A stretch of DNA of 64,000 nucleotides. Source: an uncultured Planctomycetaceae bacterium (GTDB taxonomy: Bacteria > Planctomycetota > Planctomycetia > Isosphaerales > Isosphaeraceae). Positions 15,356 to 22,205 of the stretch are shown piece after piece. The position numbers were made by a program, and so were the translations under genes. The number at the start of each line of letters is the position of its first letter. Within the stretch, counting starts at the first letter, position 1. The stretch lies in assembly GCA_963833985.1 (NCBI GenBank), contig CAWIAD010000002.1, positions 6,432,001-6,496,000 of the forward strand, given 5' to 3'. Under the pieces are notes generated by a model that saw only the letters and a program-made list of their open reading frames with translations, was not told the DNA's origin and did no database searches.

Positions 15356-16057
15356 GTGCTCAAGTTGGCGATTTCCGAGACGATTGCCGCCGTGGTCTTC
15401 GACCTCGACGGACTGATGTTCGACACCGAGGCCCTGTTCTTCCGGGTCTCTTCCGACATGCTGGAGGCGCGGGGCCGGAGCTTCACGCCGCAGATCATGC
15501 GCGCCATGATCGGCCGGCGCTCGGTCGACGCCGCTCACGTGCTCAAGACCATGACCGGGCTCGACGAGCCGCTCGAGGTCCTGCTCGCGGACGTCCGGCA
15601 GCGGTTCAACGCCGAGATCGACACCGCCGTGCACCCCACGCCGGGGCTGATCCGCCTGCTCGACCGCCTGCACCAGCACCGCCTGCCGTTGGCCGTGGCC
15701 ACCTCGTCGCGGCGGGCCTACGCCGAGCAGCTACTGGCGCGGCACCGTCTGCTCGAGCGGTTCTCGTTCATCCTGGGCGCCGAGGACGTGACCCGTGGCA
15801 AGCCCGACCCGGAGATCTACGCCACCGCCGTGCAGCGGTTCGGCGTTCCCGCACGTACAGTCCTGGTGCTGGAAGATAGCCCGGCGGGTGTGGAGGCTGG
15901 CGTGCAGGCCGGCACGGTGGTCGCTGCCATTCCGCACGAGCACAGCCCGGAGACTGGCCTGCACGCCGCGCACCTGGTCGTCCCGCGCCTGGACGACCCG
16001 GCGATCTTGCGGCTGTTCGAGCCACGCATCTCCGATGTGGGCAGGGCCTCGTCATGA
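15356..16057 (+). CDS. HAD-family phosphatase
   Basis: FDLDGLMFDTE, ATSS, KPDPEIY and LEDSPAG motifs. Confidence 0.92.
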   Translation: MLKLAISETIAAVVFDLDGLMFDTEALFFRVSSDMLEARGRSFTPQIMRAMIGRRSVDAAHVLKTMTGLDEPLEVLLADVRQRFNAEIDTAVHPTPGLIRLLDRLHQHRLPLAVATSSRRAYAEQLLARHRLLERFSFILGAEDVTRGKPDPEIYATAVQRFGVPARTVLVLEDSPAGVEAGVQAGTVVAAIPHEHSPETGLHAAHLVVPRLDDPAILRLFEPRISDVGRASS

Positions 16058-16779
16058 CATCGACCGGGCCGCAGCCGCTGGAGCCGCAGATCCGGCCTTC
16101 TGAACAGGGCCGCATTGATGCCGGATGGCGGGCGATGGTGCCCTACCTGGCTCCCATGCTGGTGTTCCTGGTCCTGACCAGCCTGGAACGCTACGTGCCC
16201 GCCCCGACGTGGTATCCGCTCGCCTATAGCCTGAAGATCGTTCTGGTCACCCTGGCCGCCTGGGCAAGCCGTTCCACATGGTCCGACCTGCGTCCTGTTC
16301 CGCCGTTTGGAATGCTGCTGGCCGGTGTTGTGACCGGGTTGATCGTCTTTGTGCTCTGGGTCGGGCTTGAAGGCTGGTATCCGGAGCTTGGCTTCCTGGG
16401 CAAGCGCACCGGATTTGATCCCTCGACGTTGAGCCCGCGCTGGAAGTGGCCGTTCCTCGCGGTCCGCATGGCGGGCCTGGTGCTACTGGTCCCGCTCATC
16501 GAGGAGCTGTTCTGGCGGTCGTTCTTGATGCGCTGGGTGATCGATTCGGATTTCTGGAAGGTGCCTGTCGGCCAGGTGACGCCGCTGGCCGCGGGGGTCA
16601 CTTCGGTGGCCTTCGCGCTCTCGCACCCCGAATGGCTTCCCGCGCTGCTGACCGGCCTGCTCTGGGCGTGGCTGCTCTGGCAAACGCGCTCTCTGCTGGC
16701 GTGCCTGCTGAGCCACGCCGTGGCCAACCTGGCGCTCGGTATGTATGTGCTGGCTACGGGAGCGTGGAAATACTGGTGA
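16054..16779 (+). CDS. CAAX prenyl protease-related membrane protein (type associated with PEP-CTERM/exosortase loci)
   Basis: VPLIEELFWRSFL, FALSH and HAVANL motifs; ATGA overlap with the HAD gene. Confidence 0.85.
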   Translation: MTSTGPQPLEPQIRPSEQGRIDAGWRAMVPYLAPMLVFLVLTSLERYVPAPTWYPLAYSLKIVLVTLAAWASRSTWSDLRPVPPFGMLLAGVVTGLIVFVLWVGLEGWYPELGFLGKRTGFDPSTLSPRWKWPFLAVRMAGLVLLVPLIEELFWRSFLMRWVIDSDFWKVPVGQVTPLAAGVTSVAFALSHPEWLPALLTGLLWAWLLWQTRSLLACLLSHAVANLALGMYVLATGAWKYW

Positions 16780-16860: not shown

Positions 16861-17313
16861 TCATGGATGCTGCCATTGCCCGGGCGCGGACGAGCCGGCT
16901 CCCGCATCGAGACGACGTATCAAGCTCTTGAATTGCTCCGCGGAGCTTGTCGCCTGAAATGCCAGCCCCGCCTCATACATCCCGCTCGTGGTCGGCTTGA
17001 CCCGCAGGATCTTCATGGCGTACCAGCGCGTCTGCACGGGCTTGACAAGCTGGACCAGGACATCCTCGTGACCTGGCATTTCGTGCAGGGCGATCAACGC
17101 ACCTCCCTGGCTGAGATTCAGGATCCGTGCGTCGATCTTGTGAATCGTCTCGCCAGCCCACCAGCCCATGAAAGCCTCGTTCGGCGCAGTGGGATAGCGA
17201 GGGTGCGCGCGGCGATCCACGCGGGCGATGGGTGAACCATCGCCAGTGACTGATTCCACTTCCGGGGGATCGAGTGAATTCGAGACCTTGAACGAGTGGT
17301 TCGAGATGAACAT
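16861..17313 (-). CDS. PilZ-domain (c-di-GMP-binding) protein
   Basis: RRAHPR (RxxxR) and NLSQGG (D/NxSxxG) motifs. Confidence 0.75.
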   Translation of the reverse strand: MFISNHSFKVSNSLDPPEVESVTGDGSPIARVDRRAHPRYPTAPNEAFMGWWAGETIHKIDARILNLSQGGALIALHEMPGHEDVLVQLVKPVQTRWYAMKILRVKPTTSGMYEAGLAFQATSSAEQFKSLIRRLDAGAGSSAPGQWQHP

Positions 17314-17381: not shown

Positions 17382-17409
17382 TCCGGCCTCGTGGGTCCGG
17401 CCTCGTGGG
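17382..17409. repeat. Tandem 14-bp direct repeat
   Basis: TCCGGCCTCGTGGG occurs twice in tandem, at 17382-17395 and 17396-17409. Confidence 0.9.
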
Positions 17410-17951
17410 ACAAGATTCCAGTGCGCCGTGGAAAGGTGTTGGTCTTCAGTGGGTGTAACTCCCACCCGGCAACTGGGTCGCTCCAGCCGGTAGCTATCGG
17501 AGCGGCGGTGGAGGAGACGAAACCGTCGGAGCCTTCGAGACAGATGTGTCGCTTGGCGATGCAGCGAACCGACAGGCCGTAACGCGAGTGAACGTTGAGC
17601 AGGCCTCGAAAAGTCCAATGTGGTCGCCGACCTTGCTGGAATATGGGGAAGGCCGCCGTCGCTGGGGATGAAAGGGAAACGGTTGGAATAGGCCGCCCCA
17701 CGAGCGATCAGAACCCAGCGGGCCACCGGGGTATTGACGACGGCATGTCGGCACACGGAGATCAACACAACACGGGAAACCCCAAGCGGTGAGGGCGCGT
17801 GACCCTCAACCGGACGCCCGCGAGGGACCGGCCGGGCTGCCTGGGGTGGCGGAGAGGCCCGTAGTACCGTCGACGCCGGGTAACTCCGGTCGAGGGAAGG
17901 GGCCTTGGTTCAAGGTCAACGCAACAAGCGGCAGACAGCCGGGAGATTGGC

Positions 17952-18650
17952 GTGAGTCTATCACCTCCACTGAAGGTCGGGAAGTTGCAGACGGCGTTGC
18001 ACACCAAAGCGAAGAACGCGCCCAACTATCGGTTCTACGTCCTGTACGACAAGATTTATCGACGTGACGTTCTGGGATTCGCCTACGAACGCTGCCGTGC
18101 CAACGGCGGCGCGCCGGGGATCGACGGCCAGAGTTTCGCCGACATCGAGGCGTCCGGGAAGGAACGATGGCTGGACGAACTGGCGGAACAACTTCGTAAG
18201 GAGACGTATCAACCCCAGGCGGTGCGGCGCGTGTACATCCCCAAAGGGGACGGCAAGCAAAGGCCGCTGGGCATTCCTTGCATCAAGGATCGTGTGGTGC
18301 AGATGGCTGCGGTGCTGGTCTTGGAGCCGATCTTCGAGGCCGACCTGGAGCCGGAACAACACGCCTACCGCCCGGAGCGCAGCGCCCTGGACGCCGTCCG
18401 CGAAGTCGAACGGCTGCTCAAGACGGGGCACACCGAGGTGGTGGACGCGGACTTATCTGGATATTTCGATAGCATACCCCATTCCGAGTTAATGAAATCG
18501 GCGTCACGGCGCATCAGCGACGGTCGCGTCCTGCGGCTGATCAAGATGTGGCTGGAAACACCGGTGGAAGAAACCGACGGGAAGGGGCAGCGCCATCGAA
18601 CGACCCGGAATAAAGACCAGGGGATGGGTACACCGCAAGGTGCACCGATC
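17952..18650 (+). CDS. ltrA: Group II intron RT/maturase, N-terminal part (interrupted)
   Basis: GAPGIDG, RRVYIPK, RPLGIPCIKDRVVQ, DADLSGYFDSIPH and GTPQGAPI; then runs into the insert and stops at 18683. Confidence 0.93.
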
Positions 18651-20665
18651 ACGCCCCCAACAATGTTGCAAAATCGTCCCTGATTCCTGACTCTGTCATT
18701 TCCAGATCGCGGCTTCGACCGAAGTACGGGCACGGATGGCAGCCCCGACTCGATCCCGATCCAAGGCAGGCTGGCGGCCGCGCTCTCGGAGAGGAGGAGT
18801 CGACATGATCACGTCCCCACGGAGGCCCACGTTCAGTCCTCCTGTCACCCGCCACTTCGAGTTCACTCGGCTTCAGGAGCAATTGATCGCGCGTGCATAT
18901 CAGGTCTTGATCCCGGTCGTTTCGCAGCGCCTGGATCGGCCGCGACCCAGCCGCAACCACGCGACTGTGGTCCACACTATCCAGTCCAAGGTCGGGGGGG
19001 TTTGACAAACCATGATCACGGACAATCTCCGCGTGGCGCTCTACGCCCGGGTTTCGGGGGAGCAGCAGGAGAAGGAGGACACGATCGCCAGCCAGCTCGA
19101 GGCGGTCACTCAGCGGATCGCCACTGATGGCTTGGAATGCGAGCCCGAACTGCACTTCGTGGACGACGGCGTCAGCGGTTACATCCTGGCCCGACCGGCA
19201 CTCGAGCGACTTCGGGACCAAGCCGCCGCTGGAGCCATCGACCGCCTCTATATGCTCGATCCGGATCGACTTTCACGCAAGTATGCCTATCAGGTCTTGA
19301 TCCTTGAGGAACTTATCCGGTGCGGTGTCGAGGTCGTCTTCTTGCGCAACCCCGTCGGCCGCAGTCCGGAAGCCGACCTGCTGCTTCAGGTCCAGGGAAT
19401 GATCGCGGAATACGAGCGCGCCAAGATCATGGAGCGTTGCCGCAGGGGCAAGCAACACGCCGCCCGCCGCGGTTCGGTCAACGTCCTCAGCGGCGCACCG
19501 TACGGCTACCGTTACATCGGCAAGCACGAGGGAGGTGGCGAGGCGCGTTATCAGGTCCTCGCTGAAGAGTCCCGGGTCGTGCGGAAGATCTTCGAATGGG
19601 TGGGTCAGGAACGGTGCTCGATCGGCGAGGTGTGCCGACGCCTCCGGCGCGACAGTATCCCGACGCGGACCGGGAAATCGGCCTGGGATCGCGCGACGGT
19701 CTGGTTGATCCTCAAGAACCCTGCCTACAAGGGGACCGCGGCCTTCGGCAAGACGCGCTCAGGTGAGTTCAAACCTCAACGCCTCCGCCCGCAGCGAGGC
19801 CGCCCCGAACACTCCCGGCGACCGGTCTCACGGGTTGATACATCCTCGGAAGATCAAATCTTCATTGAAGTCCCCGGGCTGGTGAGCGAAGACCTCTTCC
19901 TGGCTGTCCAGGCCCAGCTTGAAGAGAACCGGCAACGCCGTCGCGACCGGCCCGGCGGTGGCCGATATCTGCTCCAGGGCCTGGTCGTCTGCAAGCGCTG
20001 CGGCTACGGCTGCTACGGCAAGCCGACGAGCCGAGCCGCGTTCGAGGGCAAGGGTAGGGTCCGCTACGCGTACTACCGTTGCACGGGCTCTGACGCCTAT
20101 CGTTTCGGCGGGCAGCGCCTCTGCTGGAACAAGCAGATCCGCACCGATATCCTTGACGCTGCCGTCTGGGAGGACTTACGAGGTCTCCTGTCCGAGCCGG
20201 AGCGGGTCCGGGAGGAGTACGAGCGGCGGCTGCAGGGTGCCCAGGGCGGGCCGAATCAGGAGGTGGAGCATCTCGGCAAATTGATAAATAATGTGAAAAA
20301 GATGATTTCTCGATTAATCGATGCTTACGGCGACGGGTTGCTCGACAAATCGGAGTTCGAGCCCCGGATCTCGGCGGCAAGGACGCGCCTCTCGAGATTG
20401 GCGGAGGAGCATCGACAACGAATCGGCGAGGCCGCCCAAGAGGCGGAATTGCGACTGGTGATCGGTCAGTTGGAGGAGTTCGCACGTCGCGTCTCGCAAG
20501 GGTTGCAAGAGCCGGACTGGGCCACGCGACGGGAGGTGGTTCGGGCCTTGGTGAAGAAGGTCGAGATCGACGAGCAGGAGGTCCGCATCGTGTATCGGGT
20601 CAGTCCGTCCCCTTTTGAGAAAGGCCCCCAACAACGTAGTTCGCAACATTGTTGGGGGCGTGATC
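18647..20665 (+). mobile_element. Large serine recombinase integrative element inserted in the RT gene
   Basis: Perfect 23-bp inverted ends GATCACGCCCCCAACAATGTTGC (18647-18669) and GCAACATTGTTGGGGGCGTGATC (20643-20665); GATC present at both junctions; removal restores the RT frame. Confidence 0.92.
18805..19005 (+). CDS. Small hypothetical protein (66 aa) of the recombinase element
   Basis: Strong Shine-Dalgarno GAGGAGGAG before ATG 18805; its stop is 6 nt before the recombinase start. Confidence 0.65.
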   Translation: MITSPRRPTFSPPVTRHFEFTRLQEQLIARAYQVLIPVVSQRLDRPRPSRNHATVVHTIQSKVGGV

Positions 20666-20886
20666 TCACCATTGTTGTCCAACATCTACATGCGACGATT
20701 TGTGAAGGGATGGAAGACTGGTGGACACGAGCGGCGTCTGGTCGCGCGAATCGTCAACTATGCGGACGACTTCGTCATCTGCTGTCGCGGCACGGCCGAA
20801 GAGGCCATGACGGTGATGCGGAAGATGATGTCCAGGCTGAAGTTAACGGTGAACGAGACCAAGACGCGGCTGTGCCACCTGCCTGA
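19012..20886 (+). CDS. Large serine recombinase (resolvase, recombinase and zinc-ribbon domains)
   Basis: YARVS catalytic Ser, DDGVSG, RPAL, DRLSR, PYGY, CKRCG...YYRC and a coiled coil; the ORF reads through the right end into an alternate frame of the RT sequence. Confidence 0.95.
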   Translation: MITDNLRVALYARVSGEQQEKEDTIASQLEAVTQRIATDGLECEPELHFVDDGVSGYILARPALERLRDQAAAGAIDRLYMLDPDRLSRKYAYQVLILEELIRCGVEVVFLRNPVGRSPEADLLLQVQGMIAEYERAKIMERCRRGKQHAARRGSVNVLSGAPYGYRYIGKHEGGGEARYQVLAEESRVVRKIFEWVGQERCSIGEVCRRLRRDSIPTRTGKSAWDRATVWLILKNPAYKGTAAFGKTRSGEFKPQRLRPQRGRPEHSRRPVSRVDTSSEDQIFIEVPGLVSEDLFLAVQAQLEENRQRRRDRPGGGRYLLQGLVVCKRCGYGCYGKPTSRAAFEGKGRVRYAYYRCTGSDAYRFGGQRLCWNKQIRTDILDAAVWEDLRGLLSEPERVREEYERRLQGAQGGPNQEVEHLGKLINNVKKMISRLIDAYGDGLLDKSEFEPRISAARTRLSRLAEEHRQRIGEAAQEAELRLVIGQLEEFARRVSQGLQEPDWATRREVVRALVKKVEIDEQEVRIVYRVSPSPFEKGPQQRSSQHCWGRDLTIVVQHLHATICEGMEDWWTRAASGRANRQLCGRLRHLLSRHGRRGHDGDAEDDVQAEVNGERDQDAAVPPA

Positions 20887-21265
20887 GGAGACGTTCGACT
20901 TTCTGGGTTATACCCTCGGCCGGAACTACGACCGACGAACGGGCCGATCCTACATAGGGTCACGCCCATCGCGGAAGAAGATCATTCGGCTGTGCAGCGA
21001 GATCAGTGCGATGACGACGCGCCAGACCACTGGACAGGACGTCGAGATGCAGATTGGTCGGATCAATCGCAAGTTACGCGGTTGGTCCAACTATTTTCGC
21101 ATCGGAACGGTGAGCCCAGCCTATCGCCAAGTCAACCACCACGTCCGCTACCGGGTACGTCAGTGGTTGTGTGCGAAGTTCAAGGTGCCGGGTCAGGGGC
21201 TCAGACGCTACCCTGACAGATACCTGCACCAGGAGTTGCATCTTTACCAGCTGCAACGAACCTAG
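20666..21265 (+). CDS. ltrA: Group II intron RT/maturase, C-terminal part
   Basis: SPLLSNIY, NYADDFVI, LTVNETKT, FDFLGY and maturase-X-like LRGWSNYF. Confidence 0.93.
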   Translation, partial: SPLLSNIYMRRFVKGWKTGGHERRLVARIVNYADDFVICCRGTAEEAMTVMRKMMSRLKLTVNETKTRLCHLPEETFDFLGYTLGRNYDRRTGRSYIGSRPSRKKIIRLCSEISAMTTRQTTGQDVEMQIGRINRKLRGWSNYFRIGTVSPAYRQVNHHVRYRVRQWLCAKFKVPGQGLRRYPDRYLHQELHLYQLQRT

Positions 21266-22205
21266 CCGCGATGGTTTCGTGAGCGAACGTGTGAACTCAA
21301 CCGATGAGACAAGCCTTGTCCGAAAGCTGGATGCGGGAAAACCGCCCGTCCAGTTTGATGAGCGGGGTGTGGAAACGAGGCCCAGCCGAGCCATCGACTC
21401 GAGCCCACCGCGCCACACCTCGACTCTACGTCTTGTCACTTAAATAGATAATTGTACTTAAATCTGAAGAGACAAGATGGGAATCTTGTTCCGCGAGAGA
21501 GGCTCAAGAGTCAACGGCCGAGGCTCGGCGGCGTCACGTCAGCCAGTTCCAATGTTGTCATCTTCTTGTTCCGCATACCCGGCCACGACCATCAGCCTCT
21601 GATTGTCCCCCCTTGCCCTTGTGGGACAGGCTCCGATCAAGCGGTTTCCCTCATCATGACACTACTTCAAAACGAGGAGATTGACGAATCGCCGGGGCTC
21701 AACCGCGGGTTGAAAAGATCAACGCGGGGGACTTGTCGGTGTACGCCGCTTCATCGGATTGGGCGCTGAATACGGCCCTGAGGAAGGCCGGGTGCGCGAG
21801 CGGCGTGTCGGTTCGTCAGTGACTTTTTGTCTCGATCCTGGCAAAGGGAGCGCCGGGAAAGGCGAGGTCCAGCAAAGCGTTCGGGTTCGGGAATCGGCTC
21901 GCAGAGTGTGATCGCCTCATGCGGCGTCCCGGCTGCGTCGGCAGGGACGGCGGCCAGGCACCCGGCCGGTTTCTCCGCGAAAACCGGCAGTGACAACGAA
22001 AGCCGCATCATCCCCACAAATGACAAGGTCTTCGCTTGCAAAGCCTGGATTCATTCGGCACGATGGATTGCCAGGCAAATCAGCACTCAAGGGAAAGACG
22101 CCTGCGGCGCTCGCCGTTTGTGTACTTGAGATACGCGTCACGCCCGGTGCAAGAAGGCATTCGCAGCTTCCGCTCGACCGGGATTCCGCTTCGTGGGAGG
22201 GCTTC

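Follow-up and report, generated by a model that had tools for sequence, protein, structure and literature searches.

A 2015-bp element at positions 18651-20665 of the window, a 64,000-nucleotide stretch from an uncultured Planctomycetaceae bacterium (GenBank assembly GCA_963833985.1, contig CAWIAD010000002.1, positions 6,432,001 to 6,496,000), splits the reverse transcriptase (RT) gene of a group II intron at the isoleucine codon of the motif PQGxx[I]SP. Judging from its sequence, the element is very probably one copy of a widespread minimal family (~2 kb, two genes) of large-serine-recombinase elements that occupy intron RTs at the PQGxx[I/L/V]SP codon. Such elements likely move as a circle that, once excised, has the recombinase gene made whole at its joint. 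Because the gene entered is present in many copies, is dispensable, and lies within an intron, the element is likely a parasite of a retroelement. It appears recently active and site-specific, and a parasite of group II introns accounts for the evidence better than a host switch does.

Deletion of 18651-20665 gives a 432-amino-acid open frame containing GTPQGAPISPLLSNIY and YADD, so that the junctions and the reading frame are exactly those that had been proposed from the letters alone (hereafter, the sequence-only reading). Both RT halves match RVT_1/GIIM in Pfam, and the element lies between intron domain I and domains V-VI in Rfam; the host intron shows the GUGYG start, domains I and V-VI, and an RT with YADD and an X domain between them, as in group II introns. 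The ends of the element are 23-bp perfect inverted repeats that take in the GATC of the target, and the 2-bp crossover core AT coincides with the first two bases of the target Ile codon, without target duplication. The sequence-only reading had noted neither the repeats nor this core. Given both, the attP is predicted to be palindromic and centred on a core that is itself palindromic. The open reading frame (ORF) at 19012-20886 matches Resolvase, Recombinase, and Zn ribbon (PF00239, PF07508, and PF13408), all over the Pfam cut-off, and these domains, the 2-bp core, the lack of a duplication, and the restorable empty site are those of integrative elements with large serine recombinases. In addition, an assembled contig of the public run X1 spans the right junction (20624-20775) with zero differences, and X1 may be the sample from which the genome came; sequencing runs with small shares, RNA runs included, were left out as evidence.

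The same codon is hit throughout the family. A scan of representative genomes found at least 548 relatives, of which 79 loci, 42-97% identical, were kept; 27 of these were left out (25 without both ends found and two with short flanks), which left 52 scorable loci. Among the matches listed, 33 of the 52 show a clean 5'/3' split of an RT at the same codon and phase, 17 forward and 16 reversed, and the same number rejoin to an intact RT motif; the sequence-only reading had taken intron RT genes as the attB and had called for this check of the recombinase flanks, and the result supports that target. Four further loci have two like halves (three 5'/5' and one 3'/3'), and three are RT-like on one side. 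The split RTs, ~30-83% identical to that of the window, occur in Planctomycetota, Chloroflexota, Pseudomonadota, and Acidobacteriota. The cores follow the codon (AT, CT, or GT) and often differ between the two ends, and mismatched cores are therefore tolerated. A metagenome scan blind to the RT, with a 20-mer of the element end as the query, gave at least 143 loci, of which three were too short; 106 of the 140 scorable ends, among the matches listed, abut the PQG codon (55 forward, 46 reversed, and five without orientation). Plasmid pDK1 carries a frameshifted copy at the same RT site, annotated only as a recombinase family protein, and the element-end motif is absent from viral contigs.

The recombinase ORF has no stop inside the element, and its C-terminus depends on the context: the forward insertion adds 73 residues from the RT in another frame, the reversed insertion adds 47 others, and the circle joint would add 52 from the left end. 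The sequence-only reading had called the recombinase intact, which needs correction: its own tail lies at the left end, and 73 codons run on into the RT. Across the joint, the arithmetic closes (1812 + 201 + 6 - 4 = 2015), with two genes and a 6-bp spacer and no remainder. Such a displaced tail is a family trait. In 48 of 53 elements (the window element included), namely those with a long open frame at the right end, the tail has at least 35 open codons in the recombinase frame in 47/48 cases, compared with 6/96 in the other frames, and its phase is identical in all 48. The stop of the tail overlaps a possible start codon in 38 of the 48; in the window, this is the ATG of the 66-aa ORF. Over tail codons 8-30, pN/pS (the ratio of nonsynonymous to synonymous differences; 14 tails, pairwise) is 0.45, compared with 0.97 and 1.33 in the other frames and 0.29 in the recombinase body. 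Among 31 database proteins carrying the tail, one (P0021) is a natural recombinase reading across the joint, which means that a circle or tandem form is present in DNA somewhere, and no more.

We propose that excision (attL x attR) would release a 2015-bp circle with a 603-codon recombinase, a 66-codon ORF, and the 6-bp spacer. The circle would make the full-length recombinase and could integrate at any site resembling the RT motif, in either orientation owing to the palindromic attP and the AT core. Integration would swap the recombinase tail for foreign residues, likely damping the enzyme, and the tail may alter recombinase activity in this element. The clearer switch would then be the recombinase gene of the element, complete only across attP, rather than the intron. 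The 66-aa ORF, a candidate directionality or accessory factor whose product would likely assist excision, has no Pfam family, and its atlas matches are unnamed and below 0.9. An intron that carries the element loses its RT and would need intact copies to supply it in trans. The element encodes no regulator gene; no sigma-70 promoter was found in it, and terminators are at chance level. There is no relaxase, as the two ORFs and the 6-bp spacer fill all 2015 bp; oriT itself was not searched.

Table 1. Coordinates in the window of the element, its host intron, and the exons.
Feature	Position	Strand	Remarks
Group II intron	17421..21429	+	1994 nt without the insert; starts GTGCG, ends AC; boundaries from 13 copies; Rfam RF02003 and RF00029
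Intron domain D1	17447-17587		Rfam match
Intron domains V-VI	21322..21404	+	Rfam RF00029
Intron RT gene, 5' half	17952..18650	+	ends PQGAP-I; Pfam
Target codon ATC of intron RT	18648-18650	+	last codon of the 5' half
Intron RT gene, 3' half	20666..21265	+	SPLLSNIY, YADD, maturase X domain; Pfam
Left end (attL)	18647..18669	+	23-bp terminal inverted repeat; crossover core AT at 18648-18649
Right end (attR)	20643..20665	-	23-bp terminal inverted repeat; core AT at 20663-20664
Displaced 3' end of recombinase gene	18647..18808	+	53 codons and TGA; joins the recombinase frame only in the circle; TGA overlaps the ATG of the 66-aa ORF
66-aa ORF	18805..19005	+	family-conserved, FExxRL...AY..L.P; alignment of 30
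Large serine recombinase body	19012..20664	+	551 codons without a stop, the frame staying open in foreign sequence up to 20886; domains: catalytic, recombinase, zinc ribbon
5' exon	17405..17420	+	first arm and loop of a repetitive extragenic palindrome (REP)-like GTGG + hairpin repeat, the intron target; same motif before all intron copies
3' exon	21430..21437	+	second arm of the REP-like hairpin

Several observations weigh against a circle-forming, RT-specific element. By the patterns used, 12 of the 52 loci and 34 of the 140 metagenome ends (both among the matches listed) are non-RT, and the loci in these counts are not independent, several coming from one genome. On an attB profile built from the 33 RT targets, a second intact RT of the same genome, 36% identical and unoccupied, scores 38.7, and the two off-target sites occupied in this genome score -8.9 and -28.3, compared with 50.8. 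Tail codons 31-46 are near neutral (pN/pS 0.85 in the 14 tails, pairwise), and the raw codon-position bias over tail codons 9-45 is 88/82/69. P0021 is represented by one record, from a 1509-bp contig, and may reflect a tandem copy. The circle junction, for which the sequence-only reading had also called, was not found: the attP joint is absent from the genome assembly, from the at least 143 metagenome ends, and from the 15 of 35 joints displayed for runs X1, X3, X5, and X7. These negatives are weak, as the contigs come from mixed soil samples and palindromes assemble poorly. No excision, circle, or recombinase activity was observed.

Related recombinases also occupy other mobile genes. Elements of this kind lie inside transposase genes of IS256 (L057, L061, and L062; L057 confirmed by Pfam) and IS3 (L032). 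When 39 recombinases are placed on a tree, those from the three IS256-like genes cluster as a single clade (100/100 support). The host gene at L049 has no Pfam hit, and we take it by its motif to be an IS5-like transposase. Another sister lineage sits in group II intron domain V-like sequence (L067:2642-4614 and L034:2629-4620, grouped with a third, unassigned copy on the tree), an assignment that rests on likeness to the Rfam consensus, and the end sequence of this lineage resembles its own target.

The sequence-only reading saw the element as a possible on/off switch or parasite of the intron. In its fullest form, the switch would be a domesticated, regulated element of the skin/XisF type, kept by the host or the intron to turn maturase and retrohoming off and excised on cue. 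Precise excision would indeed restore the RT frame, and with nine of the 11 complete intron copies occupied, retrohoming would be held down. Both orientations, two off-target copies, and recent multiplication are, however, the marks of a selfish element, and the occupancy of 9/11 introns itself speaks against regulation. Sister lineages in IS256, IS3, and intron domain V also argue against it, as do the patchy spread (any match in 14 of 61 genomes, with full-length matches in only some relatives) and the lack of the regulator and promoter mentioned above. We regard such a switch as quite improbable and not supported.

A transposon of relaxed specificity, similar to TnpX/TndX, would be enriched in RTs by copies surviving or multiplying inside introns and not by targeting. 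Off-target copies in this genome and elsewhere, the mismatched cores at the two ends of many copies, and composite copies that appear to multiply are in line with it. On the other hand, the same codon and phase are used in RTs only 30-50% identical to each other in four phyla, and survival bias would not fix one codon. The element has one dominant target codon and, unlike the multi-targeting (TndX-like) recombinases, no DUF4368, the domain linked to that clade by PMC10083194, and relaxed specificity thus has little probability. Collapsed repeats could give the arrangement as an assembly artefact, since each of the two contigs starts within a copy of the intron or element, and single-nucleotide polymorphisms (SNPs) are mosaic among copies. 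Such an artefact is refuted at the family level by the same junction in dozens of unrelated assemblies, metagenome contigs, and plasmid pDK1, and the run contig spans the right junction exactly; overall, we consider such an artefact extremely unlikely.

The genome of the window holds 11 full copies of the element, with 99.9-100% identity and 0-2 internal changes from the window copy. Nine are at the RT codon (seven forward and two reversed), and two are at unrelated non-RT sites, one of which retains part of the target motif (CCGCAAG, 8 bases, AT). The uninterrupted intron copies for which the sequence-only reading had advised looking exist: two empty copies lie at C2:1.39 Mb and C2:2.15 Mb, and the first is a 100% match to both RT halves and encodes the same protein. 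One further intron 5' half ends in 19 bases of the element end at a contig start, and one further 3' half begins the other contig. An older remnant has the same junction, with 81% identity in the element and 94-95% in the intron. The flank common to the intron copies is limited to the REP-like cluster (at most ~250 bp), and the copies are therefore separate intron insertions; for the same reason, larger duplications were rejected as a source of the composite copies.

Beside one of the off-target insertions lies a 111-bp repeat (C2:5867724-5867834) with at least 13 near-identical copies. An internally deleted old remnant of intron and element at C2:4628505-4627302, with intact intron ends in a REP site, may be a mobile derivative that is not autonomous. 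At C2:2147541-2148825, the RT 3' half of an occupied intron is itself interrupted by an insertion sequence, presumably ISAs1-like, whose 411-aa ORF resembles a transposase; the result is four nested layers, and the insertion sequence has two more copies in the genome.

Hitchhiking of the element in intron RNA, as the sequence-only reading imagined, is only suggested. At a silent SNP in the RT 3' half, 15 bases from its start, 7/7 forward copies have C, and the two reversed and two empty ones have A. Fisher tests give p = 0.028 for forward versus reversed copies and p = 0.003 for forward versus all others, and if both orientations are equally frequent, as in the family, the chance of all seven being alike is p = 0.016; these tests assume independence and were chosen after the data were seen. 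Such a linkage is easier to explain if an intron that already carried the element spread than by seven separate insertions, but retrohoming in trans and gene conversion account for it equally well. L218, a reversed copy with C in the 3' arm, weakens the idea that this allele dictates a forward insertion. At other SNPs, the copies are mosaic, which needs recombination or assembly mixing. In genome G007, the intron family that harbours an element (97% identical) is a different one, and three full-length copies of the family occupied in the window genome are unbroken there, a pattern that also fits co-proliferation with one intron family per genome. As the route of copy spread, we roughly give retrohoming somewhat below an even chance, with gene conversion and independent insertion each a little less likely. 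The inverted ends of the element would be expected to pair in RNA, looping the insert out of domain IV.

The same genome, G007, suggests that intron halves can be exchanged around the element. At L242 (C63:111000-129500), two copies 13 kb apart and in opposite orientation join the halves of two unrelated introns, A and B, reciprocally: A5 with B3 and B5 with A3. The unswapped pair A5-A3 is found at L232, and all four pairings are in frame. An inversion between the two copies explains the swap, for which homologous recombination suffices; misassembly of the contig is another possible source of the arrangement. L048 is a similar chimera, with a 5' half 95% identical to L042 and a 3' half 89% identical to L063. 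Of the 120 sequences most closely related to the RT 5' half, 113 have an intact motif, four end in the tail of a forward insertion, and three are other; none is an element-free chimera that switches at the PQG codon. We tentatively consider a wider picture, which we think has a rather low chance of being right as a whole: an occupied intron would still splice and, together with its element, would be retrohomed to new REP sites by RT from intact copies; the recombinase would be fully active only from the circle; and copies at the same codon of unrelated introns would be places of in-frame crossover, at which halves are exchanged and chimeric introns arise.

Among known systems, the integrases of Mx8 and SSV type belong to the tyrosine family, phage serine integrases act directionally on attP x attB with a non-palindromic attP, and skin/XisF elements lie in single-copy host developmental genes and undergo programmed excision. 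The skin/SpoIVCA and XisF elements resemble ours as serine-recombinase elements that interrupt a gene whose frame is restorable (accessible part of PMC5025042), but the target of our element is a multi-copy mobile intron RT, entered in both orientations with no sign of programming. In Mx8 and SSV-type viruses, as in the element, attP lies within the integrase gene and integration gives a new C-terminus (accessible parts of PMC6070905 and PMC4383910); in Mx8, attP lies in int and integration alters the enzyme (PMC6070905). In contrast, these are virus integrases at tRNA-type sites, and ours is a serine enzyme by Pfam, in a non-viral element of 2 kb. Tn4451/Tn4453 (TnpX) and serine-recombinase integrative mobilizable elements likewise have a single large serine recombinase and recombine between 2-bp sequences, and site-specific relatives disrupt dispensable genes such as rumA (accessible part of PMC5704250). 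Compared with Tn4451/Tn4453 as described there, the element lacks a relaxase and cargo, has a conserved second small ORF and a perfect palindromic attP inside the recombinase gene, and targets the RT of another element.

The closest named protein found is the recombinase of Wolbachia phage WO (WOVitA2, 44.8%; WOVitA1, 40%). A reading frame just upstream of the WOVitA2 recombinase (L244:2874-2990) resembles the small ORF (hhalign probability 96%, 26 columns). The WOVitA2 recombinase ends 12 bases from the record end, and WO may also carry attP in its recombinase gene. WO differs from the element in being a prophage of 40-65 kb, with a magnesium chelatase gene or a variable number tandem repeat as its integration site, and no RT-gene insertion is reported in the accessible part of PMC9203015. 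The serine integrases of SPbeta, A118, Bxb1, and phiC31 have the same domain order as the element recombinase, the best solved-structure matches being SPbeta YokA (E 4e-14) and the A118 integrase (E 2e-11); however, these are phage-borne, and their integrase genes are not split.

A full-text literature search, outside which most subscription papers lie, found no description of an element targeting intron RTs. A term search of the main text and eight supplement files of a survey of large serine recombinases (PMC10083194), and of the main text of its preprint, found no intron-RT target named; the survey database may hold members of the family with no mention of their target. The accessible parts of PMC9203015 and PMC6907783 likewise gave no intron-RT target by term search. 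The family represents a mobile element specialised, across phyla, on the key enzyme motif of another mobile element, and it is likely a brake on the spread of group II introns. It also extends to serine recombinases the pattern of an integrase gene interrupted by its own attP, which would make a compact state switch. The database entries of this recombinase family carry a foreign C-terminus and are therefore the wrong protein for genome-engineering tests unless the circle form is built. The sister clades aimed at IS256 and intron domain V offer a natural series for target change in these recombinases, and the reciprocal exchange of halves suggests one way in which introns could diversify.

The host intron inserts into the loop of a REP-like hairpin repeat. 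The REP-like motif has 147 genome copies at up to four mismatches, compared with 0-1 for five shuffled motifs, and these GTGG + hairpin repeats fall in 66 clusters, often as inverted doublets ~74 bp apart. None of the seven Y1_Tnp matches has a repeat within 1.5 kb, and a link of the repeat to REP-associated tyrosine transposases was rejected on this ground. No paper on introns homing into REPs was found in the literature search. The RT 3' half shows no endonuclease domain in Pfam. Upstream of the intron, a PilZ-domain gene (16861-17313, minus strand) and an Rce1-like CAAX protease gene (16054-16779, plus strand) are the neighbours, and no link between them and the element was seen.

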